This document shows, piece after piece, positions 25,179 to 57,820 of a DNA stretch of 64,000 nucleotides. The position numbers and the translations under genes were made by a program. Location: NCBI GenBank assembly GCA_020137815.1, contig CM035357.1, forward strand, positions 248,001-312,000, in the 5' to 3' direction. The DNA is from Hormiphora californensis. Lineage: Eukaryota; Animalia; Ctenophora. The notes below the pieces were generated by a model. It was not told the DNA's origin. It ran no database searches and saw only the letters and a list, made by a program, of their open reading frames with translations. Every line of letters begins with the position of its first letter. Positions within the stretch are counted from its first letter, which is position 1.

Positions 25179-28100
25179 TTAATCTGAATTTGCCACATAT
25201 GGTTTATCCTCTGAACCGTATATCTCTGATCCTTCTTCTTCCTCCTCAGCGACCGATTGGTCGGGGGTCGGGGTCGCTGAAAGGGTGAGGTTTGGTGAAA
25301 TTGCACACTTAGAGGATGTACCGTACAGAATAGAAGTGTGTGCAGTGTGTACTAGTGCGGTGTTGGGTCCCCCTATATTAGAATTCTACATCTAGAGATC
25401 AGTATACTCTCTATAGATACCTCTCTTACCTCTCTTTCCCTCGGATACCCTGAGTTCTCTCTTACCTCTCTTCCCCTCGGATACCCTGAGTTCCCTGACC
25501 AATCTGATCCTCTCCTCTTCCTGTCTGCGTCTCTCCTCCTCGATCCGTGCCTTCTCTGCTCTCCTTGCTATCTTCCTCCTGACTGAGAACGGGTCCTCAG
25601 GGTCCTCTATACTGGATACCTCTGTTCCTGTACTGTCAGTGTACACGCTAGCCTGGTGATGGGAGTTGTTGAGTAAGGGGTGGAGTAGTATACAAGTAAA
25701 CTTAGAGTTGGCCAGCTAGCTACGTTAGGGCTTCAGACCCCCTAACACCAGGAATTGAACTTCAGTTCAGTTTTTGGCCCCAAGTAACAATTAACAATCG
25801 GTTATTCAAGTGGTGATACAATTAACAATTAACAATTATAGTTACCTCTGACTCCGAGGGGGTGAGAGCAGTATCGATATCAGAATAGATATCTGATTCC
25901 CCACCAAAGCTGATATTGTCCGCCAGGTTCTGGGCCAGAGCTTGACGGGGTGTTTGCACCAGGTTGGTCACTTGGAGTGCATCCTGGGTGTGGTTAATTA
26001 ATTAATTTATTCACTATAGATAGCGTGATCATATATCAGTGAGTACTTAATTAGTAATCACTTAGTAATTAATCACTTAGTTAATAAGCAATCAAATAAT
26101 AATCACTAAGCAATTAATAATTAATTAATTAATCACTAACCACTACTTCCTCCTCTTCCTCTTCCTTGTAGTAATCATAACAGTGAGGCTTGAAAGGGAA
26201 ATTCTTGATGCAGTTCACACAGCCAACCTGGAGAGAGAGTAATATTATATGTTACTGCCTAGTAGATATAAAGGAGTGAAATTTGTTGAATAACTATCAT
26301 ATAACATTTATTAACTACACAACGAAAAACAGTTTTCCGTTTTCATCAGTTTTATTATCAAACAAACATAATATTTACCAATGTAAAGGTGAAGAGGAAT
26401 GGTGCTAGATACAAAATGTAGATGGCTTACCAATGTAAAGGTGAAGAGGAATGGTGCTAGATACAAAATGTAGATGGCAGAGGAGATATAGATCATCGGT
26501 TTAGGCCACACTTGTTGCTTGAAATACAGCTCTAACACCGCTGAAATAATTAACAGCTAATTAATTAATTAATTAACAAGTACCTTTGAAATAGTTAGTG
26601 AATATAATAGTTAGGAGAGTCTTAACAACTGTGTTCCACTTACAACTGTGTTCCACTTACAACATACAACCCTCCTTTAGGGAAAACTCAGCTCTAACTG
26701 AATGGCATCCCATTAATGGGATCCCATCAACAGTAAAACTCTAACTGCAGATAATGGACCACAGTGATGGTTCTTTCTCTGTATTCTCCCAGGTGGTGAG
26801 CTGCAACTTACAACTGTTTGCTGCGGTGATACCATCCTCTTCAAGAGAGTCCCCCGCCCCTCTTATCCCTATTGACCACCCTCACCCCCTATATGACTCA
26901 TCTCACCCTCGGCTCACTCCCCTCGCCCCATGTTCTAACCCTCCTTTACATGTGCACGTGGCAACTTACAACTATTTGCTGCGGTGATCCCATCCTCTTC
27001 AAGAGACTCTGCGGTCGCTGATCCCAGATACGTCATCTCAACTCTGAGGAGACTACCGAACTCTAGTACAGCTCGGAAAATAGCCATCCCTACCATACCT
27101 GATGAGTAATGGTTGGATGCTTTGGTTACGAAGTTACCCCTTGCCAGCGCGCGCGAAGTGTGAGGTGTCTTAATAAAAATATGTCGGGGAAAAAAATGTC
27201 GGGGAAATAAAAATAATTGGATAAACACCTTAATTACAGTCGGACCCCGATTTACCAGGAGGATAAAATTCCCCCGATATAGGAAATTAACAGAATTTGA
27301 CCCCGATATATCGGGCATCGCGGTCCGACTATCCGACTGTAGTACTAATTAGTAACTAAGAGTAATTAACAGTAATTAACAGTAATTAGTAATTACCTGC
27401 TGGCACGATGAAAGGCCACACGAACATCCAGTAGTAATGAAGATGATGCATGCTGTACATGAACATTGCGTTGTTCAGTCTGTACATACTGTATACCCAG
27501 GTACCCGCTATCACCTGTTAGGAGACGTCATGTGATCATATATATGGAGGTGTGAACATTATCATGTCCATATATGGGGGTGTGAACATTATCATGTCCA
27601 TATATGGGGGTGTGAACATTGAATGACTATATATGGAGGTTTGAACATCATCATGTCCATATATGGAGGTGTGCTGGTGTGAACACTATCATGTCCATAT
27701 ATGGAGATTTCTCACCATGATGGCTGATAGGATGGGGACAGGCCAACCGTATGCGAACTTTTCGAATATCTGATACATAAAGAATCCGAATCCCGTATTG
27801 AGAGCGTACACCTGGGAGAAAAGAAACTGAAATTAGTAAATTAGTAAATTAGTAAATTAGTAAATTAGTATATTAGTAACAATTTTAAATAATGATTGGA
27901 GAAATAGATTGGGTCAATAAAATACATGACAATTGACATCAGTTGTACCTGTGCGAGTTACTTCGAACTCTATACTACTTTCGCGGGCAGGTCATCCTCC
28001 AGACGCAGCAATTGCACAAACAAACAAACAAACAAACAAACAAACAAACCTGTGCAAGTGCAGCACAGAGAGCAGCCACCAACAGACATGAGGGGATTCG

Positions 28101-31100
28101 GGAGAAATTTAGGAAACCTGCTCCATAGACAGAAGTAGCCATAGTCTCAATAATTGCCTGGAGAGATCGTTACTTTAACTAGGGAGAGATTAGAAGAAAT
28201 GAGAAAGTAGAAGAAATGAGAATAGGGTTAGCTGACAATTTACACCATGTACTAATAGTACAACAATAGTAAATATACCTGGATACATAATGAACTAATT
28301 ACCTAATTAACACTAATTAGCACTAATTACTAATTAGCAACATGTTCTATTATATACCTGGATAGATCCGATACTATTCATCACAATACACATCAGCATG
28401 AGAGGGAGTATCGCCAGGGAGTGCTTGTGAAATGACAGAGAGTCTGCTATTGTAGCCATGAAGAGATAGGAACCACCAGCATCCCTGCAATAAAACATTA
28501 ATTGCTTGGAATTAATCAATCAATCTAGTAAATCAATCAATTATGAATTAACAAGTTGCAATTATATACAGCTGTAATTAGATCTGTACAAGAATTGAAC
28601 GAGGAAAAAGACCAGAAAAGACTAAATACTTTCTGAGGTACATTGTATACAGTGCTACCAGACCTAATTTCATTATTTAATTGAAACCAAGTTTCAATAT
28701 TCAATTGAAACCATTTTTTCGCTATAACACTGGAACCTATATTTTCAATATATATACGAACCTGTTCATGACATCTTTTATTCTAAACTCAACTCGGTCG
28801 GTCAGAGTTGACACGAACCTGTTCATGACATCCTTTATTCTAAACTCAACTCGGTCGGTCCGACGAACCTGTTCATGACATCCTTTATTCTAAACTCAAC
28901 TCGGTCGGTCCGACGAACCTGTTCATGACATCCTTTATTCTAAACTCAACTCGGTCGGTCAGACGAACCTGTTCATGACATCCTTTATTCTAAACTCAAC
29001 TCGGTCAGTCAGACGAACCTGTTCATGACATCCTTTATTCTAAACTCAACTCGGTCGGTCAGACGAACCTGTTCATGACATCCTTTATCCTAAACTCAAC
29101 TCGGTCGGTCCGACGAACCTGTTCATGACATCCTTTATTCTAAACTCAACTCGGTCTGTCAGACGAACCTGTTCATGACATCCTTTATTCTAAACTCAAC
29201 TCGGTCCGTCAGACGAACCTGTTCATGACATCCTTTATTCTAAACTCAACTCGGTCTGTCAGACGAACCTGTTCATGACATCCTTTATTCTAAACTCAAC
29301 TCGGTCCGTCAGACGAACCTGTTCATGACATCCTTTATTCTAAACTCAACTCGGTCGGTCAGACGAACCTGTTCATGACATCCTTTATTCTAAACTCAAC
29401 TCGGTCGGTCAGACGAACCTGTTCATGACATCCTTTATTATAAACTCAACTCGGTCGGTCCGACGAACCTGTTCATGACATCCTTTATTCTAAACTCAAC
29501 TCGGTCTGTCCGACGAACCTGTTCATGACATCCTTTATTCTAAACTCAACTCGGTCGGTCCGACGAACCTGTTCATGACATCCTTTATTCTAAACTCAAC
29601 TCGGTCGGTCCGACGAACCTGTTCATGACATCCTTTATTCTAAACTCAACTCGGTCGGTCCGACGAACCTGTTCATGACATCCTTTATTCTAAACTCAAC
29701 TCGGTCGGTCCGACGAACCTGTTCATGACATCCTTTATTCTAAACTCAACTCGGTCCGTCAGACGAACCTGTTCATGACATCCTTTATTCTAAACTCAAC
29801 TCGGTCGGTCAGACGAACCTGTTCATGACATCCTTTATTCTAAACTCAACTCGGTCGGTCCGACGAACCTGTTCATGACATCCTTTATTCTAAACTCAAC
29901 TCGGTCGGTCCGACGAACCTGTTCATGACATCTTTTATTCTAAACTCAACTCGGTCGGTCCGACGAACCTGTTCATGACATCCTTTATTCTAAACTCAAC
30001 TCGGTCGGTCCGACGAACCTGTTCATGACATCCTTTATCCTAAACTCAACTCGGTCGGTCAGACGAACCTGTTCATGACATCTTTTATCCTAAACTCAAC
30101 TCGGTCGGTCCGACGAACCTGTTCATGACATCCTTTATTCTAAACTCAACTCGGTCGGTCAGACGAACCTGTTCATGACATCCTTTATCCTAAACTCAAC
30201 TCGGTCGGTCCGACGAACCTGTTCATGACATCCTTTATTCTAAACTCAACTCGGTCGGTCCGACGAACCTGTTCATGACATCTTTTATCCTAAACTCAAC
30301 TCGGTCGGTCAGACGAACCTGTTCATGACATCCTTTATCCTAAACTCAACTCGGTCGGTCCGACGAACCTGTTCATGACATCCTTTATTCTAAACTCAAC
30401 TCGGTCGGTCCGACGAACCTGTTCATGACATCTTTTATCCTAAACTCAACTCGGTCGGTCAGACGAACCTGTTCATGACATCCTTTATCCTAAACTCAAC
30501 TCGGTCGGTCCGACAAACCTGTTCATGACATCCTTTATTCTAAACTCAACTCGGTCGGTCAGACGAACCTGTTCATGACATCCTTTATTCTAAACTCAAC
30601 ACGAACCTGTTCATGACATCCTTTATTCTAAACTCAACTCGGTCGGTCCGACGAACCTGTTCATGACATCCTTTATTCTAAACTCAACTCGGTCGGTCAG
30701 ACGAACCTGTTCATGACATCCTTTATTCTAAACTCAACACGAACCTGTTCATGACATCCTTTATTCTAAACTCAACTCGGTCGGTCAGACGAACCTGTTC
30801 ATGACATCCTTTATCCTAAACTCAACTCGGTCGGTCAGACGAACCTGTTCATGACATCCTTTATTCTAAACTCAACTCGGTCGGTCCGACGAACCTGTTC
30901 ATGACATCCTTTATCCTAAACTCAACTCGGTCTGTCCGACGAACCTGTTCATGACATCCTTTATTCTAAACTCAACTCGGTCGGTCCGACGAACCTGTTC
31001 ATGACATCCTTTATTCTAAACTCAACTCGGTCGGTCAGACGAACCTGTTCATGACATCCTTTATCCTAAACTCAACTCGGTCGGTCAGACGAACCTGTTC

Positions 31101-34100
31101 ATGACATCTTTTATTCTAAACTCAACTGGGTCGGTCAGACGAACCTGTTCATGACATCCTTTATTCTAAACTCAACTCGGTCGGTCAGACGAACCTGTTC
31201 ATGACATCCTTTATTCTAAACTCAACTCGGTCCGTCAGACGAACCTGTTCATGACATCCTTTATTCTAAACTCAACTCGGTCAGACGAACCTGTTCATGA
31301 TATCCTTTATCCTAAACTCAACTCGGTCGGTCAGACGAACCTGTTCATGACATCCTTTATTCTAAACTCAACTCGGTCCGTCAGACGAACCTGTTCATGA
31401 CATCCTTTATTCTAAACTCAACTCGGTCGGTCCGACGAACCTGTTCATGACATCCTTTATCCTAAACTCAACTCGGTCGGTCAGACGAACCTGTTCATGA
31501 CATCCTTTATCCTAAACTCAACTCGGTCGGTCCGACGAACCTGTTCATGACATCCTTTATCCTAAACACAACTCGGTCGGTCAGACGAACCTGTTCATGA
31601 CATCCATTATTCTAAACTCAACTCGGTCGGTCCGACGAACCTGTTCATGACATCCTTTATTCTAAACTCAACTCGGTCGGTCCGACGAACCTGTTCATGA
31701 CATCCTTTATTCTAAACTCAACTCGGTCGGTCAGACGAACCTGTTCATGACATCCTTTATCCTAAACTCAACTCGGTCGGTCAGACGAACCTGTTCATGA
31801 CATCCTTTATTCTAAACTCAACTCGGTCGGTCCGACGAACCTGTTCATGACATCCTTTATTCTAAACTCAACTCGGTCGGTCCGACGAACCTGTTCATGA
31901 CATCCTTTATTCTAAACTCAACTCGGTCGGTCCGACGAACCTGTTCATGACATCCTTTATTCTAAACTCAACTCGGTCGGTCCGACGAACCTGTTCATGA
32001 CATCCTTTATTCTAAACTCAACTCGGTCGGTCCGACGAACCTGTTCATGACATCCTTTATTCTAAACTCAACTCGGTCGGTCCGACGAACCTGTTCATGA
32101 CATCCTTTATCCTAAACTCAACACGAACCTGTTCATGACATCCTTTATTCTAAACTCAACTCGGTCGGTTAGACCGTAGAACTTCTTCCTCTCGGGATTG
32201 TGCATGATGTTGTTCATATAGTTGACATTAAGGAATACAAACAACATGAACACTAAATTCCCAACCCAGGCGTAACATGTAATTACCATTCCTGAAGAGA
32301 AATGTGTTATACTTTTATATTGCATTGAATCACTCTGATCACATTCAAGACATCTGGACATCATGTGTGAAATTGTGTGATCTGTTGGATGTATCTCATG
32401 CATCTCACGTACCCTGCAAGCCTCTCTCTCACGTACCCTGCTAGCCTCTCTCTCCCTCTCCCACGTACCCTCTCTCTCTCCCTCTCTCACTCAAGTTGAC
32501 CCAGTTATCACGTACCCTGTAAGTTGACCCAGTTATCACGTACCCTGCAAGTTGACCCAGTTATCACGTGGATTGTAAGATGAGAATGCAATGTTAACTC
32601 CTGTTCCAATGGCATGGAATGTCATAGTCACAATTCCTGGAAACAGTTCATTAAATCATTCATCATTCTATCAATGTAATATAGCTGGTAAGAGTCATTA
32701 TATCTTGATGTATTGTGCCATTTTGTATGTGATTTTTAATGGAAAGCACACGATAGTATATTCACGGTACCTGCTACGATAGAATGTATCTGGTTACCAT
32801 GGTTACATGTACCTGCTTCAGCCCAGTTGTTGGGTTTGCTAAAGTACCGTCCAACGGAATGTATGAAGGTCTCATCGTCAGTATCCCTCTCAAGCTCAAA
32901 TAACATTTTAACTAGCTCAGCATTAATACCACCACGAAGTGCTGGAGTTTAAATGAGGGGAGGGGGGTTTCATGAGAGATGTGTTTTATGGGGCTCTTTG
33001 ATATAAACAGCTGATATATATACACAGTCGGACACCTTGAGTTACATGGGTGCAGTATTTAAAGTCCGTTTCAAGCGACTTGACCCGTAATTCTTGGAAT
33101 TTGGCGCATTGCGCGTGTATTTACAAAGGGGAAATCCTGAATTTCCAGGAATCTCAGGTCAAGTCGTTTGAAACGCACTCTAGTAGGTAGAGTAGAGAAA
33201 TCTCTAGCTCTGGGTGCAGTAATAGCATGTATGGTTTATGATCAAGATATCAATTTGATAATATCGTAATATAATTATCCGTTTGTAAAAGAAAGACATA
33301 AGTCCGACTGTGTATCAGAGCTGTCTCTCAAAGTGCCCTCTCTGTTACCTGCCTCTACCCATTTCTCTGCGTCACTAAAATTCTCCTGCAACTGCACCCA
33401 CGGACCATCCCGCAGCCCAAACAACATTCCAAAAAGTTCCTCATTCCACCCACCACGCACCGCTAATTAATTAATTGACTTTTAATTAGTGTATTAATTT
33501 TCACTCCACAGTTCTTTTCGTTGAGTAATTGGATGAATAATTGATTAAATAATTAATTGTTTAATCTAGTAATTAACTGATTAATTAATTCATTCATAAT
33601 GCTTGATATACTTACAGATGTAGATGCACCCCAGAATTATCCCAAAGAGAGGTATAATGTACTGAATACCAAACAAAATATGCCGGAGAGACGGTTTGAT
33701 GGCCGTGATCAGCGCTATAAAGTTAACCAGGATTAATTAGTTAATTAGTTAATTAGTTAATTAGTTAATTAGTTAACGAGGATTATGAGTACATTTCAAA
33801 GGGTACTATTTTACTAATCTTAGTAAAATATTAAAGGGTATTATACATACTGACATTTCGAAGGGCACGGTTATTATATTTTACTAATCTTAGTAAAATA
33901 TCGAAGGGTATACATTTTAACTCACCAATAAACAGGAACGTGAACATGCACATGTATCTGTTCTCCTTGTCAGCGTGAGTAATAAACAGACTTGTGAAAT
34001 CATTGAAATACGTTGTCACATTTGTTGTTCCCTCGGTGTTGTTTCTAGCGATGAATGTCTGATAAAACTCAGTGTTCTCCAGCTTCTCTGAAATGATGAC

Positions 34101-40100: not shown

Positions 40101-43100
40101 TGGTAACCATTCTAAACTCACTGGTGATTACCATGGTAACCATTCTAAACTCACTTGACAGAGTGTATCGTTTGTAAGGAATCTCAAACGGTATGACATC
40201 ATTAGGGAATTCAATGTCCATCAGGGTTGTCAAGACAACCTCGCCAATAGCAAGGGCCGTTACCATGGTGAGGGTTAACAGAGTCATGAAGTAGATGGCA
40301 ACCTCAATCTAAATTGGGGGAAGGTTTGAATCAGATTTAAACACTCTTTTATTCTAACGAACAACAATACTCTCTTTCCCTCTGTCTTCCTCTGTCTCTA
40401 AGTAGTAACTCTCTATCCCTCTGTCTTTCTCTGTCCCTCTAAGTATACTAACGGCAGCGAATGTGTCCCCTGATTCCTCCTGTTCAAGATTCTGCAGCAC
40501 CGTCGGAATGATGACAAACACCAGACTGAAATCCGTAGGAAGCTGAAAAAGGTTAACACAAGTCAAAATGGAAATCCTGGAAAAACATTGGCATACGCTA
40601 CAGGCCCCTATCATACGGGGCCGGGGTGAACGCATGAGTTGCAGTGTATTCGAATGAAAAGTATTTCCCTATTTTAAATTTTTTGAGGTGATTTCTTGTT
40701 TTTATTCTTGTTGGTGATTTTGTTTTCCCCTTACCTCATCCAGGTTGCTGAGATCTGACACAGTGTAGTAACTGGCCACGGGAATTAGTAGAAGGGTCGT
40801 AACCAGAGGGGCCAACATACCTGCAGGATAAACCATCGATAATTGTGCATTTAAACATTGTGTAACTATGTTGTGTGAAAATATGAAGCTCTAGCTGCTA
40901 CTTTAGGGATATCAGCTGAATGCATGTAACCATGGCCTGGTAGCCATGGTAAACATGTTGAATTTAACTAACCCCACACGGAGATGAGGATCCCATCTGC
41001 TACAAGGTTGTATTGTGGGTTAGCGTATCCACTGTATGTTGAGAACACCCCCAACCCACACAGTGAGACCCGGAACGCCTGGGTTGCTGCATTCATCCAG
41101 GTTGAGGGTTTAACTAACGCATCCCACTATAATATGGAAGTAGTAGGTGTTATAAGGCGGGGTGGGGGCTGGGTTCAATTCGATATTATCCTGTATCTGG
41201 GGCGGTCAACTATTTAAATTCTCATATCACGCACTATAATATTTCTTGAATTGCTCATGAATTGTCCGGAGCACGGACATAGTGTCAAGCGACTCAAAAT
41301 ATTTCTTACATCAAGGGAGAAGATATCAAGTAGAGAAGCTACTGGTTCATCCACGTTCTTCACATTCAGCTTCCAAGTAGCCAGGGCCTTGGCAAAGATT
41401 GCCAGGAACACTACCAGAGGGATGACCAGGGAAACATAGGGGAACTGATGAGTGGGGGATGGGAGGTTAGAGGGAGACATAGGGGAACTAGGGGGATGGG
41501 AAGTAAGTCGAATGATGGGACACGGTGCACCAGAAGGATCGTCAACCCAAAGTTGAGCCCGCAAAACAAACTTTTGTTGGGGGTGACCCAGGAGGCCTTC
41601 CTGAACATCCCCACGGTGAGAAAAGTATATGTTATCGGGGAAAATTTTTGTCAAAATCGAAAAAACTGGTTTTTGGTCCAAATTTGTGCATAACTTACTT
41701 GACTGCCGTTTGATGAAATATCTGATTGACATAAAATAAGTATACAAGACCTATTTTTGCACGAGGAATCGATTGCCGGTGGAGAGAAATCTCTAAAATG
41801 ACCGGAAAATTGTCAAATATGGGAATTTTGTCATTTTTTTGAGGTTTTTGGCCCTTTAACCATTGAAAATGTTGAGATAGGAAGTTGGCAATAGCGCCAA
41901 TCGTTAAAATGGTCATTTTTCTACGGGATCCCAAAATTTCATGTATATCCGATTCATGGTTAGATTTTGGCAAACTATTGAGATGTGCTTACTGAAAAAA
42001 GGATAACTTGATTTTCTCGTTTTTTGCGATTTTTTAACTTTTGAAAGAATTCTGATTGAAATGGCCAATCAGGGCCATGCTAAAGTTGTTTATGGGACAA
42101 TTTTCGACCAAAATCCAAGATTTCATGCAAATCCAATGACAGATCATTGATTTGTAGAAAGTTGAAATAGGCAAAAAAGGCCAATTTTTACCATGAAAAC
42201 AAAAATACACATTTTTTTCTTGTCAATTTCCATCAACAACTGGTACCCTACCTATTTTTGCACGTAGAATCGATTGCCGGTGGAGTGGATCCTCTTAAAT
42301 GATTGGAAAAGCGGTCAAAATGCCATTTTATGGAGGTCCAAAAACTTCCAAAAAATGACATTTCGACCCCTTTCCAATCATTTAAGAGGATCCACTACAC
42401 CGGCAATCGATTCTACGTGCAAAAAATAGGTAGGGTACCAGTTGTTGATGGAAATTGACAAGAAAAAAATGTGTATTTTTGTTTTCATGGTAAAAATTGG
42501 CCTTTTTTGCCTATTTCAACTTTCTACAAATCAATGATCTGTCATTGGATTTGCATGAAATCTTGGATTTTGGTCGAAAATTGTCCCATAAACAACTTTA
42601 GCATGGCCCTGATTGGCCATTTCAATCAGAATTCTTTCAAAAGTTAAAAAATCGCAAAAAACGAGAAAATCAAGTTATCCTTTTTTCAGTAAGCACATCT
42701 CAATAGTTTGCCAAAATCTAACCATGAATCGGATATACATGAAATTTTAGGGATCCCGTAGAAAAATGACCATTTTAACGATTGGCGCTATTGCCAACTT
42801 CCTATCTCAACATTTTCAATGGTTAAAGGGCCAAAAACCTCAAAAAAATGACAAAATTCCCATATTTGACAATTTTCCGGTCATTTTAGAGATTTCTCTC
42901 CACCGGCAATCGATTCCTCGTGCAAAAATAGGTCTTGTATACTTATTTTATGTCAATCAGATATTTCATCAAACGGCAGTCAAGTAAGTTATGCACAAAT
43001 TTGGACCAAAAACCAGTTTTTTCGATTTTGACAAAAATTTTCCCCGATAACATATACTTTTCTCACCGTGGGGATGTTCAGGAAGGCCTCCTGGGTCACC

Positions 43101-46100
43101 CCCAACAAAAGTTTGTTTTGTGGGCTCAACTTTGGGTTGACGATCCTTCTGGTGCACCGTGGGGAAGTAGTTACGATCGAATGGTCATGTAAAATGGCCA
43201 TGTGCTGACCATTTTCTCTGTTTAAAGAGTAACCTTACTCAGACTTGATTAGAACTAAAGACCATATTATTGCAAACAGTACATACCTTTCCTTTGACCC
43301 ACAATCCACTGCACATGAAGGCACAAATCAGCACCCAGGCCAACACAATCACGATGAACGGAAAGAACTTCTCAAAATCAGTGTACCAAGCAAGATCTCC
43401 GATACTCAGGGGAGAGTCAGAGAGGTGAAGAAACTCGTAGTACCAGTGAAACAGAGCACCTGAGGTCTGAAACAGGAAACACGTGTTTAGGGGGTTTGGT
43501 TCCAGTACAGGAAACAGGGGGAGGGAGTTTAGAATTGTGTGGATCATACCGTTAGAGTGCTCTGTGATGGTAGATCAAGTTTAGGGGGGTTTGTTCTACG
43601 GGACTAGATTTGATTTTCACATGGTAAAGAAGATCAAAATTACTGTAGTTTGTTAACTGGTTCTACATCAGATCGCTGCACCGGATCAGAGTAGGTTGAT
43701 TAACATTAGACCTACCTCACAACACACAAGATTTTTCCCAGTCCAACCCTTGGATGCGCAGGTTCCAGCTCCAGGGTAGGATCCATTGGGTGCTATAGCT
43801 GTCCAGATACCCTTAATACTGTAGTACAGGGTCCACGCAGTAGTTGTGTTAAAGTAGATGTTGTAGATGATCGTCACAAACAGGATAGCTGTAAGAGGGT
43901 GGGTGTGTGAGTCAGTGGAGATAGAGATATGGGTGGATGTGTGAGTCAGTGGAGATAGAGATATGGGTGGATGTGTGAGTCAGATAGAGATAGAGATAGG
44001 GTAGCTGAGGTATAATCGAGTATCGGAGTTTTGTTAAAATTATAAACCGTGGGATAAAGATATATGGAAAATATGGATCAGAATCCCGAACTTGATTTTA
44101 AAACCATGTTCATATAATAAAGCTCACTAAAGTTTCAATCTGAGCTAATACACATGATAAAGCTCACTAAAGTTTCAATCTGAGCTAATACACTAAGTAC
44201 TGATGTTGAGCTAATACACTCACATTTCCCTTTTCTCCTTACTGTATAACGGTAATACGACTACAAGCAGCACTGTAATACACTCACATTTGCCGAGACC
44301 CGAGAAGAATTTGTGAATTCTCTCCATGGTAACGATGACGCCCCTCCTGAATACTTGACCAATCAACATCTCCATAATTAGCGTGGGAAGGGAGAACATC
44401 ATGTAGAAAATAAAGTAGGGAATCAGAAATACACCTGAAAATAAAGTAGGGAATCAGAAATACACCTGAAAATAAAGTAGGGAATCAGAAATACACCTGA
44501 AAATAAAGTAGGGAATCAGAAATACACCTGAAAATAAAGTAGGGAATCAGAAACACACCTGAAAATAAAGTAGGGAATCAGAAATACACCTGAAAATAAA
44601 GTAGGGAATCAGAAATACACCTGAAAATAAAGTAGGGAATCAGAAACACACCTGAAAATAAAGTAGGGAATCAGAAATACACCTGAAAATAAAGTAGGGA
44701 ATCAGAAATACACCTGAAAATAAAGTAGGGAATCAGAAACACACCTGAAAATAAAGTAGGGAATCAGAAATACACCTGAAAATAAAGTAGGGAATCAGAA
44801 ATACACCTGAAAATAAAGTAGGGAATCAGAAACACACCTGAAAATAAAGTAGGGAATCAGAAATACACCTGAAAATAAAGTAGGGAATCAGAAATACACC
44901 TGAAAATAAAGTAGGGAATCAGAAACACACCTGAAAATAAAGTAGGGAATCAGAAACACACCTGAAAATAAAGTAGGGAATCAGAAATACACCTGAAAAT
45001 AAAGTAGGGAATCAGAAATACACCTGAAAATAAAGTAGGGAATCAGAAACACACCTGAAAATAAAGTAGGGAATCAGAAATACACCTGAAAATAAAGTAG
45101 GGAATCAGAAACACACCTGAAAATAAAGTAGGGAATCAGAAACACACCTGAAAATAAAGTAGGGAATCAGAAATACACCTGAAAATAAAGTAGGGAATCA
45201 GAAATACACCTGAAAATAAAGTAGGGAATCAGAAATACACCTGAAAATAAAGTAGGGAATCAGAAATACACCTGAAAATAAAGTAGGGAATCAGAAACAC
45301 ACCTGAAAATAAAGTAGGGAATCAGAAATACACCTGAAAATAAAGTAGGGAATCAGAAATACACCTGAAAATAAAGTAGGGAATCAGAAACACACCTGAA
45401 AATAAAGTAGGGAATCAGAAACACACCTGAAAATAAAGTAGGGAATCAGAAACACACCTGAAAATAAAGTAGGGAATCAGAAATACACCTGAAAATAAAG
45501 TAGGGAATCAGAAACACACCTGAAAATAAAGTAGGGAATCAGAAATACACCTGAAAATAAAGTAGGGAATCAGAAATACACCTGAAAATAAAGTAGGGAA
45601 TCAGAAACACACCTGAAAATAAAGTAGGGAATCAGAAACACACCTGAAAATAAAGTAGGGAATCAGAAATACACCTGAAAATAAAGTAGGGAATCAGAAA
45701 CACACCTGAAAATAAAGTAGGGAATCAGAAACACACCTGAAAATAAAGTAGGGAATCAGAAACACACCTGAAAATAAAGTAGGGAATCAGAAACACACCT
45801 GAAAATAAAGTAGGGAATCAGAAATACACCTGAAAATAAAGTAGGGAATCAGAAATACACCTGAAAATAAAGTAGGGAATCAGAAACACACCTGAAAATA
45901 AAGTAGGGAATCAGAAACACACCTGAAAATAAAGTAGGGAATCAGAAATACACCTGAAAATAAAGTAGGGAATCAGAAACACACCTGAAAATAAAGTAGG
46001 GAATCAGAAATACACCTGAAAATAAAGTAGGGAATCAGAAACACACCTGAAAATAAAGTAGGGAATCAGAAATACACCTGAAAATAAAGTAGGGAATCAG

Positions 46101-49100
46101 AAATACACCTGAAAATAAAGTAGGGAATCAGAAATACACCTGAAAATAAAGTAGGGAATCAGAAACACACCTGAAAATAAAGTAGGGAATCAGAAATACA
46201 CCTGAAAATAAAGTAGGGAATCAGAAATACACCTGAAAATAAAGTAGGGAATCAGAAATACACCTGAAAATAAAGTAGGGAATCAGAAATACACCTGAAA
46301 ATAAAGTAGGGAATCAGAAACACACCTGAAAATAAAGTAGGGAATCAGAAACACACCTGAAAATAAAGTAGGGAATCAGAAATACACCTGAAAATAAAGT
46401 AGGGAATCAGAAACACACCTGAAAATAAAGTAGGGAATCAGAAATACACCTGAAAATAAAGTAGGGAATCAGAAATACACCTGAAAATAAAGTAGGGAAT
46501 CAGAAACACACCTGAAAATAAAGTAGGGAATCAGAAATACACCTGAAAATAAAGTAGGGAATCAGAAATACACCTGAAAATAAAGTAGGGAATCAGAAAT
46601 ACACCTGAAAATAAAGTAGGGAATCAGAAATACACCTGAAAATAAAGTAGGGAATCAGAAACTACACCTGAAAATAAAGTAGGGAATCAGAAATACACCT
46701 GAAAATAAAGTAGGGAATCAGAAATACACCTGAAAATAAAGTAGGGAATCAGAAATACACCTGAAAATAAAGTAGGGAATCAGAAACACACCTGAAAATA
46801 AAGTAGGGAATCAGAAATACACCTGAAAATAAAGTAGGGAATCAGAAATACACCTGAAAATAAAGTAGGGAATCAGAAATACACCTGAAAATAAAGTAGG
46901 GAATCAGAAATACACCTGAAAATAAAGTAGGGAATCAGAAATACACCTGAAAATAAAGTAGGGAATCAGAAATACACCTGAAAATAAAGTAGGGAATCAG
47001 AAATACACCTGAAAATAAAGTAGGGAATCAGAAATACACCTGAAAATAAAGTAGGGAATCAGAAATACACCTGAAAATAAAGTAGGGAATCAGAAATACA
47101 CCTGAAAATAAAGTAGGGAATCAGAAATACACCTGAAAATAAAGTAGGGAATCAGAAATACACCTGAAAATAAAGTAGGGAATCAGAAATACACCTGAAA
47201 ATAAAGTAGGGAATCAGAAATACACCTGAAAATAAAGTAGGGAATCAGAAATACACCTGAAAATAAAGTAGGGAATCAGAAATACACCTGAAAATAAAGT
47301 AGGGAATCAGAAATACACCTGAAAATAAAGTAGGGAATCAGAAATACACCTGAAAATAAAGTAGGGAATCAGAAACACACCTGAAAATAAAGTAGGGAAT
47401 CAGAAATACACCTGAAAATAAAGTAGGGAATCAGAAACACACCTGAAAATAAAGTAGGGAATCAGAAACACACCTGAAAATAAAGTAGGGAATCAGAAAT
47501 ACACCTGAAAATAAAGTAGGGAATCAGAAACACACCTGAAAATAAAGTAGGGAATCAGAAATACACCTGAAAATAAAGTAGGGAATCAGAAACACACCTG
47601 AAAATAAAGTAGGGAATCAGAAATACACCTGAAAATAAAGTAGGGAATCAGAAATACACCTGAAAATAAGTAGGGAATCAGAAATACACCTGAAAATAAA
47701 GTAGGGAATCAGAAACACACCTGAAAATAAAGTAGGGAATCAGAAACACACCTGAAAATAAAGTAGGGAATCAGAAATACAAACCTGAAAATAAAGTAGG
47801 GAATCAGAAACTACACCTGAAAATAAAGTAGGGAATCAGAAATACACCTGAAAATAAAGTAGGGAATCAGAAACACACCTGAAAATAAAGTAGGGAATCA
47901 GAAATACACCTGAAAATAAAGTAGGGAATCAGAAATACACCTGAAAATAAAGTAGGGAATCAGAAATACACCTGAAAATAAAGTAGGGAATCAGAAACAC
48001 ACCTGAAAATAAAGTAGGGAATCAGAAACACACCTGAAAATAAAGTAGGGAATCAGAAATACACCTGAAAATAAAGTAGGGAATCAGAAACACACCTGAA
48101 AATAAAGTAGGGAATCAGAAATACACCTGAAAATAAAGTAGGGAATCAGAAACACACCTGAAAATAAAGTAGGGAATCAGAAACACACCTGAAAATAAAG
48201 TAGGGAATCAGAAATACACCTGAAAATAAAGTAGGGAATCAGAAACACACCTGAAAATAAAGTAGGGAATCAGAAATACACCTGAAAATAAAGTAGGGAA
48301 TCAGAAACACACCTGAAAATAAAGTAGGGAATCAGAAATACACCTGAAAATAAAGTAGGGAATCAGAAATACACCTGAAAATAAAGTAGGGAATCAGAAA
48401 TACACCTGAAAATAAAGTAGGGAATCAGAAACACACCTGAAAATAAAGTAGGGAATCAGAAACACACCTGAAAATAAAGTAGGGAATCAGAAATACACCT
48501 GAAAATAAAGTAGGGAATCAGAAATACACCTGAAAATAAAGTAGGGAATCAGAAATACACCTGAAAATAAAGTAGGGAATCAGAAACACACCTGAAAATA
48601 AAGTAGGGAATCAGAAACACACCTGAAAATAAAGTAGGGAATCAGAAATACACCTGAAAATAAAGTAGGGAATCAGAAATACACCTGAAAATAAAGTAGG
48701 GAATCAGAAACACACCTGAAAATAAAGTAGGGAATCAGAAACACACCTGAGAATAAAGTAGGGAATCAGAAATACACCTGAAAATAAAGTAGGGAATCAG
48801 AAATACACCTGAAAATAAAATAGGGAATCATAAATACACCTGAAAATAAAGTAGGGAATCAGAAATACGCCTGAAAATATAAAGTAGGGAATCAGAAATA
48901 CACCTGAAAATAAAGTAGGGAATCAGAAATACACCTGAAAATAAAGTAGGGAATCAGAAATACACCTGAAAATAAAGTAGGGAATCAGAAATACACCTGA
49001 AAATAAAGTAGGGAATCAGAAATACACCTGAAAATAAAGTAGGGAATCAGAAACACACCTGAAAATAAAGTAGGGAATCAGAAACACACCTGAAAATAAA

Positions 49101-51019
49101 GTAGGGAATCAGAAATACACCTGAAAATAAAGTAGGGAATCAGAAACACACGTGAAAATAAAGTAGGGAATCAGAAATACACCTGAAAATAAAGTAGGGA
49201 ATCAGAAACACACCTGAAAATAACGGAATCAGAAATACACCTGAAAATAAAGTAGGGAATCAGAAACACACCTGAAAATAAAGTAGGGAATCAGAAACAC
49301 ACCTGAAAATAAAGTAGGGAATCAGAAATACACCTGAAAATAACGTAGGGAATCAGAAATACACCTGAAAATAAAGTAGGGAATCAGAAACACACCTGAA
49401 AATAAAGTAGGGAATCAGAAATACACCTGAAAATAAAGTAGGGAATCAGAAACACACCTGAAAATAAAGTAGGGAATCAGAAATACACCTGAAAACAAAG
49501 TAGGGAATCAGAAATACACCTGAAAATAAAGTAGGGAATCAGAAATACACCTGAAAATAAAGTAGGGAATCAGAAACACACCTGAAAATAAAGTAGGGAA
49601 TCAGAAACACACCTGAAAATAAAGTAGGGAATCAGAAATACACCTGAAAATAAAATAGGGAATCAGAAACACACCTGAAAATAAAGTAGGGAATCAGAAA
49701 TACACCTGAAAATAAAGTAGGGAATCAGAAACACACGTGAAAATAAAGTAGGGAATCAGAAACACACCTGAAAATAAAGTAGGGAATCAGAAACACACCT
49801 GAAAATAAAGTAGGGAATCAGAAATACACCTGAAAATAACGGAATCGGTAAATTATCTTATCGTTATCTAAGTTCATGACGAATTAAGGAACCTAAAATT
49901 AATCACTACTGCAACCATTTAGTAGCTCCTGAAGGGAATCATTCCCTGGGAATGCCGTTAAATCCTTACCTCCGCCATAATTCTTCATTGCTGCCACAAA
50001 ACTGCCCATGTTTCCTATACCCCAGATAGCCGCCATGGACGCCAGGATGAACTCAATTCGGTTCGTCCACATGGGCCTCTCCTGTGTAGGAATTGTATTG
50101 GTTACCATGGTTACCACGAAGGATTTGAAGTTGCAGAATTGGGAACTTTCGGTTGCTATGGGGACTGGGGAGGTCTATCTGTGTAGCTACATTTATGCTA
50201 ACTACATTTCTAGTAACCCTGATAACGTACATCATTGAGAGCATTCTCTTTCTCATCATCAACGAGGTCATTACGGCGAAATGGTTTCTGGGCGAGCATG
50301 TCATAGTCAAATCCAGCAATTCCCTCCGCGTTAGCGGCTGTACCCGTCACCGGCAAACCTGGGAGGAAAATATTATGTTTGAATTCAGTTCAGTGAGGCA
50401 CTGTCAGACCTGACAAAATGGCAAATATTATGTTTGAATTCAGTTCAGTGAGTTGTCTAGATCAAACTGTTGCTATGGTAACTATATCTGACTACGTACC
50501 TGCTGCACTGAGCGGCACCTCAACCTCTACGTTACCAATGGTAACTATGGTAACCAATGGTTGCTATGGTAACTAACTACGTACCTGCTGCACTGAATGG
50601 CACTTCAACCTCTACGTTGCCAATGGTAACTATGGTAACCAATGGTTGCTATGGTAACTATATCTGACTACGTGTACCTGCTGCACTGAGTGGCACTTCA
50701 ACCTCTACGTTGCCAATGGTAACTATGGTAACCAATGGTTGCTATGGTAACTAACTACGTACCTGCTGCACTGAATGGCACTTCAACCTCTACGTTGCCA
50801 ATGGTAACTATGGTAACCAATGGTTGCTATGGTAACTATATCTGACAACGTACCTGCTGCACTTAGTGGCACTTCAACCTCTACGTTGCCAATGGTTACC
50901 CACGGACTCGGTTTGGGTTTGGCTGCTTTCTTTGCTTCTGACGCCTCGAACTTGGCGTACATGGAGCCTTGGGTGGCATTACTAACCGCCTTATCAACGG
51001 ACGTGCCCCAAATCCACAT
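25179..51019 (-). CDS. Tandem double-domain SLC6/NSS transporter-like protein, about 1,542 aa, 37-38 coding exons
   Basis: Exons in transcript order: 51019-50854, 50358-50231, 50081-49970, 44434-44288, 43888-43716, 43466-43287, 41444-41310, 41126-40973, 40820-40735, 40542-40453, 40308-40155, 39774-39615, 39431-39303, 39019-38938, 38746-38455, 38281-38194, 38009-37951, 37727-37614, 37147-37072, 36203-36081, 35902-35855 (tentative), 35475-35372, 34087-33926, 33714-33616, 33462-33349 and/or 32941-32813, 32636-32544, 32291-32129, 28484-28358, 28157-28050, 27811-27716, 27514-27397, 27098-26970, 26540-26431, 26227-26141, 25983-25846, 25652-25466, 25276-25179. All are GT-AG and phase-consistent. SLC6 motifs occur twice: GIGNM..YGGGVFLIPY..EMLIGQ vs GVGIITRF..LEIDLGQ; WMNAATQ vs WVEAG..FSSYN; AWIYSIYRF vs TWVYSMYRL. 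Confidence 0.85.
28756..32170 (-). repeat. 60-bp tandem array (about 57 units) of an SLC6 exon 3' end plus donor
   Basis: The unit on - reads ACC GAC CGA GTT GAG TTT AGA ATA AAG GAT GTC ATG AAC AG|gttcgt (TDRVEFRIKDVMNR), matching the end of exon 32291-32129. Confidence 0.95.
34110..35198. repeat. 11-bp satellite (YATTGTGCAAT)n, about 99 units, intronic
   Basis: Near-palindromic unit. It produces the spurious LCNHCAIIVQS ORFs. Confidence 0.95.
35468..35815 (-). repeat. About 60-bp tandem repeat carrying copies of an SLC6 acceptor plus exon start
   Basis: ttaYag|ccgctac recurs about 7 times, up to the functional acceptor of exon 35475-35372. Confidence 0.8.
35940..36045 (-). mobile_element. 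Solo Penelope-like 3' tail with a hammerhead-like core
   Basis: On -: CTGATGA a gatgt-tgtt-acatc GAAAC. The agggacaaa..tttatt..gtttcg..catcag layout matches the PLE tail at 15510-15585. Confidence 0.45.
37251..37687 (-). repeat. 119-bp tandem repeat (4 units) of an SLC6 exon end plus donor, with X-box-like spacers
   Basis: Units start at 37251, 37370, 37489 and 37608. Each encodes YPTIQVIGYLMQYFQIMIGQNKVM followed by gtgagt. Confidence 0.92.
37740..37865. repeat. 21-bp tandem repeat (aaaatcaatatgatactaatt) x6
   Basis: Read directly. It lies next to an acceptor. Confidence 0.9.
39851..40154 (-). repeat. 33-bp tandem repeat of the donor ca|gtgagttt plus an X-box-like gttaccatggtaat
   Basis: About 9-10 units, starting at the donor of exon 40308-40155. 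Confidence 0.9.
41521..43161. mobile_element. Third foldback transposon, Chapaev/CMC-like, in an SLC6 intron
   Basis: Palindrome with CACGG...CCGTG termini and 4-bp TSD GGGA (41517-41520, 43162-43165). Internal sequence is homologous to the element at 2827-4171. Confidence 0.88.
44406..49846 (-). repeat. 31-bp tandem array (about 175 units) of an SLC6 acceptor plus exon start
   Basis: Unit on -: GTGTRTTTCTGATTCCCTACTTTATTTTCAG, i.e. exon start (G)VFLIPYFIF plus AG. The 31-bp period was checked at 44435 and 44466. Confidence 0.96.
50469..50898 (-). repeat. Five copies (about 85-93 bp period) of the SLC6 first-coding-exon end plus donor
   Basis: Each encodes VTIGNVEVEVP(L/F)SAA followed by gtac. 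Spacers contain gttgctatggtaac. Confidence 0.9.
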
Positions 51020-56000: not shown

Positions 56001-56253
56001 GACAACCCCTGCTCGCTCTATCGCATTCAACTTTATCCGACTCCTCCTCCTCTTCCCCTGTCTTATGGTATACGGTCTATGGTGCAAGAAACAAATTGAG
56101 AGATTCATCTACCGACCCATGGCGTACCCTTCAACCCTGGCAGTGGATGCTGAGGATGATGTTACAGCCAGTGAGACTAGGGGCAACCAGGCTCATCATA
56201 TTGAATACAGGGATGATGTGAGTTACCCTACTCCCCCCGAGAGTAGGATTTGA
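52808..56253 (+). CDS. Small 4-TM membrane protein of unknown family. Exons 52808-52968 and 53344-53464, then alternative last exons 54543-54803, 55414-55719 or 55978-56253
   Basis: Phase-consistent GT-AG joins: MSVLETIVNSGKKVLPPPAILLFCHIVFCVFG...IVFFCTIVAIQ. Each last exon starts cag|YWPW or cag|WYPW and shares an F.RL..P...Y hydrophobic segment and an acidic tail. Confidence 0.72.
54001..54271. mobile_element. Small inverted-repeat element with internal GC hairpins
   Basis: attagatgactg ... cagtcatctaat, with internal ctcgcaggctcg repeats. Confidence 0.45.
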
Positions 56254-57021
56254 GAAGTGGGATCTCGAGGGTAGGATTTGAGATGTGGGATTATAATGAG
56301 ATTCCGAGAGAAGGATTTGAGAAGTACAGCTGAATTTAATGAAGAATCTAAACTTTCCAATGTTTTAGATTGTCCTGAGTGACCATGGCGACCAATAGAA
56401 ACCTGCCCTAGTGACCAGTAGAATTTGAACGATCTGTGCGGATATTTGGGTTGTGGGTAAACTAAAAGACGATTAAAATCACTAACGAGCTAAATTTTAC
56501 TGTTTTATCCGTTTGTTAATTGTTACTGAGCTAAAGAATTTAATCCATTTTGTTTAGTTGTAAATATTCATCTTAAATCTTAATATCCAATATCCAGCTC
56601 TGATCTTGTTAAACCAAACATCCGACCACAATTGAGGACAAGTCTAGTCCAGCATACCTCACTATTACTACATACATCCAGTGTCTGTCCTATTGCTCAC
56701 ACATCACAGTACTTTGAAGCACATCACAGTACTGACCATCCTATATATCGCTCACACACTGTATCTCACTCAAGGACAGTCACACACAAAAAGCTATGTT
56801 TACTTTCCGCTAGCTTACACATCGCGGGGGTGGGGAGGATATTAAGAGTGTTGAGAGATCAGACTCAACATTCTTCTCATTTCTCATTGCTGCTGCTGTT
56901 GATCAGTAACAACACGTTAGTAACAACATTGATCTGCTAACTCTGTGATAACACGTCACATTATAGTAACACCAGCTGTCTTTGTGCTAACAACTGACAT
57001 TGATCTGCTGTCTTTGTGATC

Positions 57022-57450
57022 ATGTCCTATCAGAACAACTACCAGACAACACCGCCACAAGGTTACCAGTATCCTGCTACTAGTCCACAACAGGCCTACC
57101 CAACTAACCAACAAGCCTACCAACAACCGACCTATGTGACTCCGACAGCTCCTTCAGCACCCGCTAAACCAGCAGCAGCAGGACCACAGCCCGTTTATCA
57201 CGTGAACACCCCTCCCCCAGCCTACGCAGCAGCACAGCCCATACCCCCTAATTACCCCCGGCAACAGCAACAGCCCTACAGAGCGTACCCTGTTGCACCG
57301 GGTCCTGTTCCGCCCACCCGGTACCAGCCAGCACCAGTGAGACAGCCATACCCATATGGACCCCCTCCGATGCCTCCCCCTGGTCCACCTCCTCCAAGGG
57401 GTGGTCCACCAATGCTCCCATTTCCCTGCTGTCTGTGTACCATCATATAG
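57022..57450 (+). CDS. Pro/Gln/Tyr-rich protein ending CCLCTII (CaaX), 142 aa
   Basis: Single ORF MSYQNNYQTTPPQGYQYP...PMLPFPCCLCTII*. Confidence 0.8.
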   Translation: MSYQNNYQTTPPQGYQYPATSPQQAYPTNQQAYQQPTYVTPTAPSAPAKPAAAGPQPVYHVNTPPPAYAAAQPIPPNYPRQQQQPYRAYPVAPGPVPPTRYQPAPVRQPYPYGPPPMPPPGPPPPRGGPPMLPFPCCLCTII

Positions 57451-57820
57451 CAAGGTAGCAAGCTTGTTGAGTAACACATCGTGTAGCAAGTAATAACAAT
57501 AGCAAGCTGGGACCTTAGAACATAAACAAGTGGTTTTAAGCTGGGATTTAGGACACAACCACTTAAGTGGGGATTTAGAAAATATGTAATGGTTTACAGC
57601 CGGACTGTAGCATGATTTGATGATAGCATGGGTGTATATTTTTTAATTTCTTTTGAAACTTTTACTTCCACTCCTCACGACCACACTTTCTTTCTTACTC
57701 CTTCATTAACTTATTTTCTGATTTATAAAACGATTTTGTTTCAATACATACCCGAACAAAACCCCAAACTCTATGAAACCCCTCAGCTCCATAATATATA
57801 TTTTAGCTAGACAAGTTACC

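Follow-up and report, generated by a model that had tools for sequence, protein, structure and literature searches.

SLC6 transporters are, in textbook terms, single units of 12 membrane helices, and the field has yet to settle whether, and in what way, neighbouring SLC6 protomers affect one another. A locus of the comb jelly Hormiphora californensis touches on both matters: does one gene here encode two such units in a single chain and, if so, what could one half do for the other? The window (the whole stretch of DNA analysed, 64,000 nucleotides of contig CM035357.1) had been interpreted in an earlier sequence-only reading as holding a gene for one polypeptide with two fused SLC6 domains.

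One reading frame through two domains

The gene was modelled as 36 exons placed by hand, with GT-AG ends and phase consistency checked for every one. From the start ATG at 51019 to the stop codon at 25181-25179 (minus strand) the model translates into 1531 amino acids without an internal stop, and it is collinear along its whole length with both ctenophore orthologues (P0001, P0002). Its parts, in window positions, are these.

25179 to 51019, minus strand: whole gene, 36 coding exons, 1531 aa, two tandem SLC6 domains; all introns GT-AG, phases in agreement, stop-free
50231 to 51019, minus strand: N-terminal segment, 98 aa, predicted cytoplasmic; exons 1-2 (51019-50854, 50358-50231)
38660 to 50081, minus strand: SLC6 domain 1, about aa 99-661; exons 3-8 (50081-49970, 44434-44288, 43888-43716, 43466-43287, 41444-41310, 41126-40973), exons 9-14 (40820-40735, 40542-40453, 40308-40155, 39774-39615, 39431-39303, 39019-38938) and the start of exon 15
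38455 to 38746, minus strand: junction exon 15, with TM12 of domain 1 (about 38722-38660), the linker and TM1 of domain 2 (about 38545-38471)
38555 to 38659, minus strand: linker, 35 aa (aa 662-696), basic (8 Lys/Arg, 3 Asp/Glu), predicted cytoplasmic
26141 to 38560, minus strand: SLC6 domain 2, about aa 694-1368; the end of exon 15, exons 16-21 (38281-38194, 38009-37951, 37727-37614, 37147-37072, 36203-36081, 35475-35372), exons 22-27 (34087-33926, 33714-33616, 32941-32813, 32636-32544, 32291-32129, 28484-28358) and exons 28-33 (28157-28050, 27811-27716, 27514-27397, 27098-26970, 26540-26431, 26227-26141)
25179 to 26227, minus strand: charged C-terminal tail, aa 1369-1531, with 40 Asp/Glu and 21 Lys/Arg among its 163 aa; exons 33-36 (26227-26141, 25983-25846, 25652-25466, 25276-25179)

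The domains meet inside exon 15, which does run open, as had been claimed, from TM12 of domain 1 into TM1 of domain 2: 292 nt and 97 codons with no intron, preceded by AG and followed by GT. Of 26 candidates, this exon matched only two, both annotated ctenophore proteins, at 86% and 84% identity over its whole length. The orthologue search that had been proposed found the two-domain layout in Bolinopsis (an annotated protein of 1538 aa) and in Mnemiopsis (1542 aa, likewise annotated). Only these two orthologues came back from 7155 candidate proteins of 845-2692 aa, a search of limited reach that failed to return the mollusc tandems described below, and both are absent from the 150 representatives listed in another search. 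Identity to the orthologues is 74.5% (both) in the N-terminal segment, 79-80% in domain 1, 84-88% in the linker, 65% in domain 2 and 58% in the tail, which makes the linker the best-conserved stretch of the protein (29 of its 35 positions are invariant in the three species). The two-domain fusion is thus confirmed at the level of the gene, and the intron-less junction, the equal layout in two species' annotations and a linker conserved above the domains it joins support a single polypeptide well; conservation also suggests that the gene is expressed. It is extremely improbable that two adjacent SLC6 genes were wrongly merged, by the earlier reader and by both annotation pipelines alike. Such errors probably do exist in databases, where the two-domain entries of Gigantopelta, Strigamia and Mesorhabditis look like merged neighbours (in each, the halves group as sisters at 46-72% identity, and the linkers have nothing in common) and were set aside, but the join considered here lies within one stop-free exon, where the protein is better conserved across three species than anywhere else.

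Could a long chain be made and its units nevertheless work separately, either because the linker is cleaved or because major isoforms yield domain 1 or domain 2 alone, with transcripts that end in the intron behind exon 15 or that begin from a hidden first exon joined to a weak AG before 38568? The linker is basic, read-through past the exon 15 donor reaches a stop within ten codons, and the AG just 5' of domain 2 TM1, with a score of 3.7, falls at the low end of the true acceptors (5 of 35 score lower), all of which would suit such an arrangement. The best donor between TM12 and TM1 scores 0.9, so that none is strong (true donors of the model score 0.8-10.6). Against separate units, no shorter full-domain form occurs among 505 candidates below 845 aa, where the four matches are all fragments, and no methionine is placed to start an intact domain 2: there is none in aa 647-792 of the Hormiphora model, nor in the orthologues from aa 545 to TM2 or TM3 of domain 2, so domain 2 could not start alone without a new first exon. 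We therefore hold separate units to be very unlikely. Spliced-leader trans-splicing is used in ctenophores, and as a source of intact domain 2 from within exon 15 it was rejected because the next methionine sits in TM3. A same-species run of uncertain type gave no contigs at 37900-39800, which is evidence neither way.

Family, fold and other tandems

Both orthologues score far above the cut-off of 27 bits for the Pfam SNF family (PF00209), at 300 and 290 bits, and two single exons of the window pass it as well; residues 62-95 of the junction exon alone match the start of SNF with an E value of 0.04, below the curated cut-off. Where two SNF matches had been predicted, each orthologue gives three stretches and not two clean ones, because domain 1 is matched as a single block and domain 2 is split into a pair. 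Our custom profile placed domain 1 at aa 91-665 (272 bits) and domain 2 at aa 690-809 and 1039-1332 (77 + 71 bits), and so makes domain 1, not domain 2, the more SLC6-like half. The expectation that the downstream exons rebuild an SLC6 domain held up in prediction, with a full 12-helix fold for domain 2. The model of this domain from the Mnemiopsis orthologue has a pLDDT of 79 and a pTM of 0.85, and superposes on human SERT with a Z of 41.7 and an rmsd of 2.6 over 517 aligned residues; its input was an alignment of 70 ordinary SLC6 proteins, a source of bias in favour of the SLC6 fold, to which ten short window exon rows had been added, about half of them misaligned (minor noise). A 60-row alignment was left out of folding as its long relatives were out of register. 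The LeuT-type fold of each domain is accordingly a prediction with that bias. Of the pseudo-heterodimer of about 24 helices, the helix count stands by alignment to 12-helix SLC6 proteins (simple hydropathy gave 19 segments), but contact as a dimer does not follow: the two-domain model, which matches B0AT1, NET and dDAT structures, has a pTM of 0.46 and a pLDDT below 50 in TM12 and the linker, and does not fix the relative orientation of the halves. The two domains are only 18-19% identical to each other, share two intron positions and phases, and sit on very long branches in our trees, all of which are quick trees.

Each half shares with the eukaryotic SLC6/NSS proteins (PF00209) its sequence family and a predicted 12-helix LeuT fold, the best sequence matches among solved structures being human B0AT1 (SLC6A19) and SIT1 (SLC6A20). 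Family members have one transporter domain per chain, whereas two stand here in one frame, with Na1 and chloride ligands missing and gates split or rearranged. No tandem SLC6 protein was found in the literature searched. SLC6 proteins had been described as normally single-domain, and the architecture does depart from that norm, but in the databases it is not confined to ctenophores. Mollusc gene models (Ylistrum XP_060064335.1, Physella XP_059161224.1, Mytilus VDH94759.1), all uncharacterised predictions, likewise place two SLC6 domains in one predicted chain; both the linker (37-56% identical when the three are compared) and the tail are conserved, and the first domain is degenerate. Their linker, however, is about twice as long and unrelated in sequence, their second domain is near-canonical in the two bivalves, unlike ctenophore domain 2, and their domains sit in another part of the tree. 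No similarity of linker or tail was found between the ctenophore and mollusc tandems; an AU test rejects the grouping of their second domains (p 0.03), and does not reject that of their first domains (p 0.117). Separate evolution of the tandem in molluscs and comb jellies is likely, and a probable second origin would make it a recurring design, not a one-off.

Gates, ion sites and pockets

Residues were compared in LeuT numbering, transferred through a SERT orthologue, with site definitions from PMC4006702, PMC6829555 and PMC6590891. The TM1 motifs are as first described: in domain 1 the sodium-binding Asn is present and Ser replaces the gate Arg, and in domain 2 the Arg is present and Ile replaces the Asn. 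The division of labour that they implied, with domain 1 binding sodium and domain 2 doing the gating, does not survive the comparison, as domain 1 lacks two of the three Na1 side chains and the Na2 residues, and the only plausible sodium site is Na2 of domain 2. At Na1 (LeuT N27, T254, N286) domain 1 has Asn/Val/Gly, and domain 2 has Ile/Phe and an ambiguous third residue, the register of TM7 giving Asn, Ala or Tyr at the N286 position across three alignments. At Na2 (G20, V23, T354, S355) domain 1 has Ala/Trp/Val/Thr and domain 2 Gly/Ile/Gly/Ser, a Gly at 354 being found in 15 of 74 single-domain relatives. The chloride site (SERT Y121, S336, N368, S372 and the TM6 Gln) keeps only Tyr and Gln in domain 1, and has lost Tyr, Gln and S336 in domain 2; some B0-type SLC6 members are reported to be chloride-independent (PMC6590891). 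By alignment, then, canonical Na1 and chloride coordination is gone from both domains.

Neither domain has a complete set of outer (R30-D404, Y108, F253) and inner (R5, W8, Y268, D369) gates. Domain 1 retains the whole inner gate together with E361, D404, N27, Y47, Q250 and the TM1 glycines; in its outer gate R30 is Ser, Y108 Phe and F253 Arg, and a Pro occupies the E290 position. Domain 2 retains R30, E404, Y108 and the TM1 glycines (R719, E1228 and S1173 are its gate and Na2 residues in this protein), has Thr at F253 and Gly at D369, and has also lost N27, T254 and Q250. The substrate-carboxyl position holds Gly, as in amino-acid-type SLC6 members. The Arg of domain 1 is encoded here:

41070 to 41072, minus strand: codon of Arg366 (domain 1, TM6), which aligns with LeuT F253

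All three ctenophores have Arg at this position, 70 of 74 single-domain relatives have Phe or Tyr, and Arg366 is a candidate replacement for the lost TM1 gate Arg. Over the three full sequences on which these counts rest, the pocket helices of both domains appear almost invariant: in domain 1 TM6 (27 of 27 positions), TM7 (25 of 27) and TM8 (25 of 27), and in domain 2 TM1 (24 of 25), TM6 (25 of 26) and TM10 (29 of 31), with 64-72% invariant in domain 2 TM4, 5, 7, 8 and 12. The swapped Arg and the loss of Na1 and chloride sites, near-invariant across comb jellies, point to use of a LeuT pocket without the usual ion coupling.

A proposed tethered, unequal pair

We tentatively favour, at somewhat less than even chances, a chain of about 24 helices that acts as a tethered, unequal pair, in which domain 2 would be the carrier and domain 1 its regulator or gate by way of the short conserved linker. 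The single frame over both domains is seen in the DNA and kept in two other species' annotations; both halves are predicted to be SLC6-folded in the same orientation, which fits the basic linker and the glycosylation sequons in outer loops of both, and both, by alignment, have lost the canonical coordination of Na1 and chloride. With its R30-E404 outer gate, Y108, TM1 glycines and Gly/Ser Na2 site, domain 2 would be the better carrier candidate, probably for an amino acid or similar small solute, driven by at most one sodium ion and no chloride. Domain 1, in which bulky residues surround the Na2 and substrate sites, the inner gate is whole and TM6 has taken over an Arg from TM1, seems to retain a selected pocket, probably without sodium drive. 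At its C-terminal end the linker reaches the inner-gate Arg and TM1a of domain 2, a helix reported to move upon inward opening (PMC6829555), so that domain 1 could restrain that step. The mollusc tandem, where likewise the first domain is degenerate and the second closer to canonical, favours an unequal pair; against the mechanism, domain 2 may not cycle, having lost N27, T254, Q250, F253 and D369, and domain 1 has the higher profile score (272 against 77 + 71 bits) and keeps the whole inner gate.

Rather unlikely, in our estimate, is that both halves are working carriers of different substrate or coupling (such as a sodium-coupled importer and a sodium-independent exchanger), tethered like NarK1-NarK2. 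The TM6 Arg of domain 1 would then rebuild the outer salt bridge with D535 or replace the Na1 ion, and the loss of R30 with the gain of Arg at F253 does look compensatory; the residues that domain 1 retains and the 93-100% invariance of its TM6-TM8 argue in the same direction, and the changes at G20, V23, T354 and Y108 and the Pro at E290 in the other. Fused carriers have a precedent, which counts for the unequal pair as well, in NarK1-NarK2 of Paracoccus (PMC5217062): a single chain there joins two secondary carriers of 12 helices each, whose activities differ and depend on each other and which are both shown to transport. That protein differs in fold (major facilitator superfamily) and kingdom, and its linker is there described as a variable, dispensable tether, in contrast with the strongly conserved ctenophore linker. 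A more improbable reading still is that neither half transports, the conserved pockets binding a solute in a transceptor-like sensor or scaffold that signals through the N-terminal segment and charged tail. The missing Na1 and chloride sites, a gate incomplete in each half, and identities to the lobate orthologues of 74.5% in the N-terminal segment and 58% in the tail agree with this, but domain 2 retains an outer gate pair, Y108 and a Na2-like site, and Pfam detects no signalling domain. Of the non-transport role first suggested, a scaffold in decay is unlikely, given pocket helices that hardly vary in either domain, and a ligand-binding sensor or scaffold stands as a rival to the unequal pair.

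The unequal pair can be pressed further, into a proposal that we regard as quite doubtful: animals would at least twice, in comb jellies and molluscs, have fused two SLC6 domains into an obligate asymmetric machine, and in comb jellies a sodium-independent domain with a rebuilt Arg gate would sense one solute and switch its partner's transport by way of the tether, short and invariant, that leads to the inner-gate helix. If true, the protein would be a ligand-gated carrier of LeuT fold made from one chain, and cross-talk among SLC6 protomers would have a natural model in it. A structural likeness is found in the lipid-mediated, non-covalent human NET dimer (PDB 9ke3, 9kda), in which two SLC6 folds lie abreast in the same orientation, as proposed here; that is a homodimer of identical, separately encoded chains, whereas the tandem would be a natural fixed heterodimer, each half mutable separately in a defined 1:1 pair. 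GABA-specific transporters are reported missing in comb jellies (bioRxiv 2026.09.08.749565), and monoamine transporters almost exclusive to bilaterians (PMC10244343); the comb jellies' own SLC6 inventions would therefore bear on how this early nervous system handles small signals and nutrients.

When JGI metagenome contigs were searched with the junction exon, 52 pattern matches came down to one locus, an 11-residue chance match on a phage-like contig with no DNA similarity, which was dropped. Two introns carry tandem arrays:

44406 to 49839, no strand: intron 3 array, about 175 copies of a 31-bp unit
28756 to 32169, no strand: intron 26 array, about 69 copies of a 50-bp unit

The intron 26 unit copies the last part of exon 26 together with the donor site. 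The intron 3 unit copies the acceptor site along with the first part of exon 4 (170 AG-GT units were counted), and splicing at the first acceptor copy would run into a stop.

The junction exon and its single reading frame

Thirty-six coding exons were set by hand from the minus strand between 53000 and 24500, and a script check of this model returned an open reading frame of 1531 aa, from an ATG at 51019 to a stop at 25181-25179, with introns that are all GT-AG and match in phase. As the sequence-only reading had claimed, one exon carries both the end of domain 1 (the N-terminal SLC6 half) and TM1 of domain 2 (the C-terminal half):

38746-38455, minus strand: exon 15, the junction exon; 97 open codons that encode TM12 of domain 1, then a linker of 35 residues, then domain 2 TM1

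BLASTP detects similarity between the two halves (E 2e-14), whose identity is 19%, and Pfam SNF is matched by five of 20 single exons scanned, including the junction exon, which covers profile positions 1-34. A search with this exon gave two matching proteins among 26 candidates (86% and 84% identity, full exon length), so that the proposed search in other ctenophores did yield orthologues, both of them two-domain:

Bolinopsis microptera XP_063685448.1: 1538 aa, annotated 'uncharacterized'
Mnemiopsis leidyi KAL5267398.1: 1542 aa, annotated 'hypothetical'

The window model is collinear with both from residue 1 through the tail, with identity highest in the linker (84-88%), then falling through domain 1 (79-80%), the N-terminal segment (74.5%) and domain 2 (65%) to the tail (58%); the orthologues are mutually closer than either is to the window protein. 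Two SNF matches had been expected: two domains were indeed recovered by our own SLC6 profile, made from 74 single-domain relatives, but Pfam yields three SNF stretches on each orthologue. With our profile a single match covers domain 1 (aa 91-665, 272 bits), and domain 2 is matched twice, at aa 690-809 (77 bits) and 1039-1332 (71 bits), the two pieces being separated by an extended divergent region in which the second outer loop lies.

Could the halves nonetheless be separate working units, produced by cleavage or as isoforms? Between TM12 of domain 1 and TM1 of domain 2 we found no strong splice donor, and the single weak acceptor directly before domain 2 TM1 scores 3.7, a value undercut by 5 of the 35 true acceptors. 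No methionine able to start an intact domain 2 was found in any of the three ctenophore species, and no stand-alone single-domain form among 505 candidates below 845 aa, where only four fragments matched. Separate units are very unlikely, and a mis-joining of two genes, set beside collinear predictions from three species, is highly improbable. The tandem observation is confirmed, and its architecture conserved, at the level of three predicted proteins, whose full sequences make a two-domain single chain very probable. Intron positions are conserved as well, since several fragments from other assemblies begin and end at window-gene exon borders. Two introns are common to both halves in position and phase, and the intron preceding domain 1 TM1 has no equivalent before domain 2 TM1, a pattern consistent with a gene that already had introns being duplicated and its copies then being joined within an exon.

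Ion sites, pockets and a candidate division of labour

Sites carry LeuT numbering, transferred via P0048 (an orthologue of SERT) and its alignment to the human protein, and residues were read in two alignments, using site definitions from PMC4006702, PMC6829555 and PMC6590891. The 33 positions are the same in the three ctenophores, bar conservative changes at one position in domain 1 and, in one alignment only, a conservative change at one in domain 2. Domain 1 retains R5, W8, Y268, E361, D369, N27, Y47, Q250 and D404 (we take the LeuT-to-SERT equivalences of W8, Y47, Q250, E361 and D369 partly as given); its R30 is Ser, a position held by Arg in 72 of 74 relatives, and it further shows Y108 to Phe, F253 to Arg366 (window-protein numbering), T254 to Val, N286 to Gly, E290 to Pro, G20 to Ala, V23 to Trp and T354 to Val. 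Domain 2 retains R30, Y108, E404, R5, W8, S267, Y268 and E361, with a Na2 set of Gly/Ile/Gly/Ser, and has changed N27 to Ile, T254 to Phe, Q250 to Val, Y47 to Cys, F253 to Thr and D369 to Gly; its TM7 is ambiguous in alignment register. The TM1 motifs first described, with N27 kept and R30 lost in domain 1 and the reverse in domain 2, thus hold, and because of the substitutions in both domains neither half has a canonical Na1 or chloride site. Despite this, conservation peaks in the pocket helices: across three species, invariant positions number 27/27 in TM6, 25/27 in TM7 and 25/27 in TM8 of domain 1, 24/25 in TM1, 25/26 in TM6 and 29/31 in TM10 of domain 2, and 29/35 in the linker, while TM4 stands at 68-72% in both halves. 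Such conservation suggests that the unusual pockets are being maintained, not decaying. The protein is derived from SLC6 but lacks a number of the traits that define a canonical member.

The ESM Atlas grouped domain 2 with SNF clusters at 0.96. An AlphaFold model of Mnemiopsis domain 2 reached pLDDT 79 and pTM 0.85 from an 81-row alignment that biases the result, and this alignment-biased model superposed on human SERT with Z 41.7 and rmsd 2.6 over 517 residues at 18% identity. The Bolinopsis two-domain model (1200 residues, 10 rows; pLDDT 59, pTM 0.46) leaves the packing of the halves unfixed, with helical cores mostly at pLDDT 70-85 and TM12 and linker below 50; it matches B0AT1, NET and dDAT, each time with one domain only. 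The basic linker and the glycosylation sequons in predicted outer loops of both halves are consistent with a common orientation.

Our tentative preference is for an unequal tethered pair. In it, domain 2, which has the outer gate, Y108 and the Na2 set, would carry an amino acid or a comparable solute without need of chloride and with one sodium ion at most. The role proposed for domain 1 is regulatory and independent of sodium, and its TM6 Arg may stand in for the lost gate Arg. The linker runs up to the inner-gate Arg and TM1a of domain 2 and could thereby be the physical route of coupling, as TM1a shifts during inward opening (PMC6829555). Against this pairing, domain 1 scores as the more SLC6-like half, and domain 2 is without D369 and F253. 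That both halves are active carriers, for which PMC5217062 offers NarK1-NarK2 as a fused precedent, is somewhat doubtful; a sensor without transport, set beside the gate and Na2 residues of domain 2, is unlikely.

Tandem SLC6 proteins in other animals

A HMMER search of 1.84 billion representatives brought up 3659 matches; in the listed set of 150, 17 proteins are longer than 850 aa, six of them with two SLC6 domains. Mollusc tandem models among the matches listed were:

Ylistrum XP_060064335.1
Physella XP_059161224.1 (three isoforms)
Mytilus VDH94759.1

Two-domain entries from Gigantopelta, Strigamia and Mesorhabditis were not counted as true tandems: their halves are sister sequences, 46-72% identical, sharing no linker, and look like merged neighbours. 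The mollusc tandems have a common linker (37-56% identity among themselves) and tail and a degenerate first domain, whereas ctenophore and mollusc linkers and tails are unrelated. Trees were built from 48 and 28 of 92 aligned rows. In the 48-row quick tree several starred branches separate mollusc from ctenophore domains, and ctenophore domains 1 and 2 join weakly (79, with a long-branch warning); in the 28-row tree they join at 95. An AU test rejected grouping the ctenophore and mollusc second domains (p 0.03) and did not reject grouping the first (p 0.117). Independent origins are favoured, not proven. The tandem family of bivalves and a gastropod (P0010, P0017, P0153, P0154, P0029, P0156), which has a conserved linker and tail of its own, is a separate and apparently undescribed one.

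No two-domain SLC6 protein was described in the full-text literature searched, a scope that leaves aside subscription journals, TCDB and supplementary gene trees, nor was one mentioned in the available portions of PMC10244343, bioRxiv 2026.09.08.749565 and bioRxiv 120998, although such phylogenomic studies may have the tandem protein in their supplementary gene trees. The tandem SLC6 of ctenophores, as three predicted proteins present it, is unexpected for a transporter specialist and open to direct test.

Intron repeats and neighbouring sequence

Many introns of the window gene are filled with tandem copies, up to about 175, of their own exon edge and splice site:

44406-49839, minus-strand gene: tandem exon-edge array
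28756-32169, likewise
37249-37686, likewise
39845-40155, likewise
50469-50896, likewise
26375-26478, likewise

Because every unit has AG immediately before GT, correct splicing has either to pass over as many as 170 decoy acceptors or to employ them in recursive steps. Long foldback-like inverted-repeat insertions duplicating their flanks lie at 41600-43240 and 3088-4100, and that of intron 6 is a reverse copy of sequence adjoining exon 7. At 15703-17922 stand two inverted partial copies of one element with a reverse-transcriptase-like start and a GIY-YIG match (E ~4e-4) slightly under cut-off, which we take to be Penelope-like. Long plus-strand frames at 3-1571, 1983-2384 and 4151-5818 lack a Pfam match, the last finding only weak helical-solenoid look-alikes of mixed families in the Atlas (top 0.90). 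Dispersed hydrophobic exon-like frames (6568-6831, 12187-12330 and 15065-15313, plus strand) resemble, by eye only, helices of a seven-helix receptor. A plus-strand membrane-protein gene at 53345-56250, also without a Pfam match, apparently ends in one of three alternative exons (near 54540, 55415 and 55980) that resemble one another and each start with a Trp-Pro-Trp motif. Four short proline-rich frames cluster at 57004-58945 (plus strand), two of them near-identical copies, with Cys-rich, CaaX-like tails.
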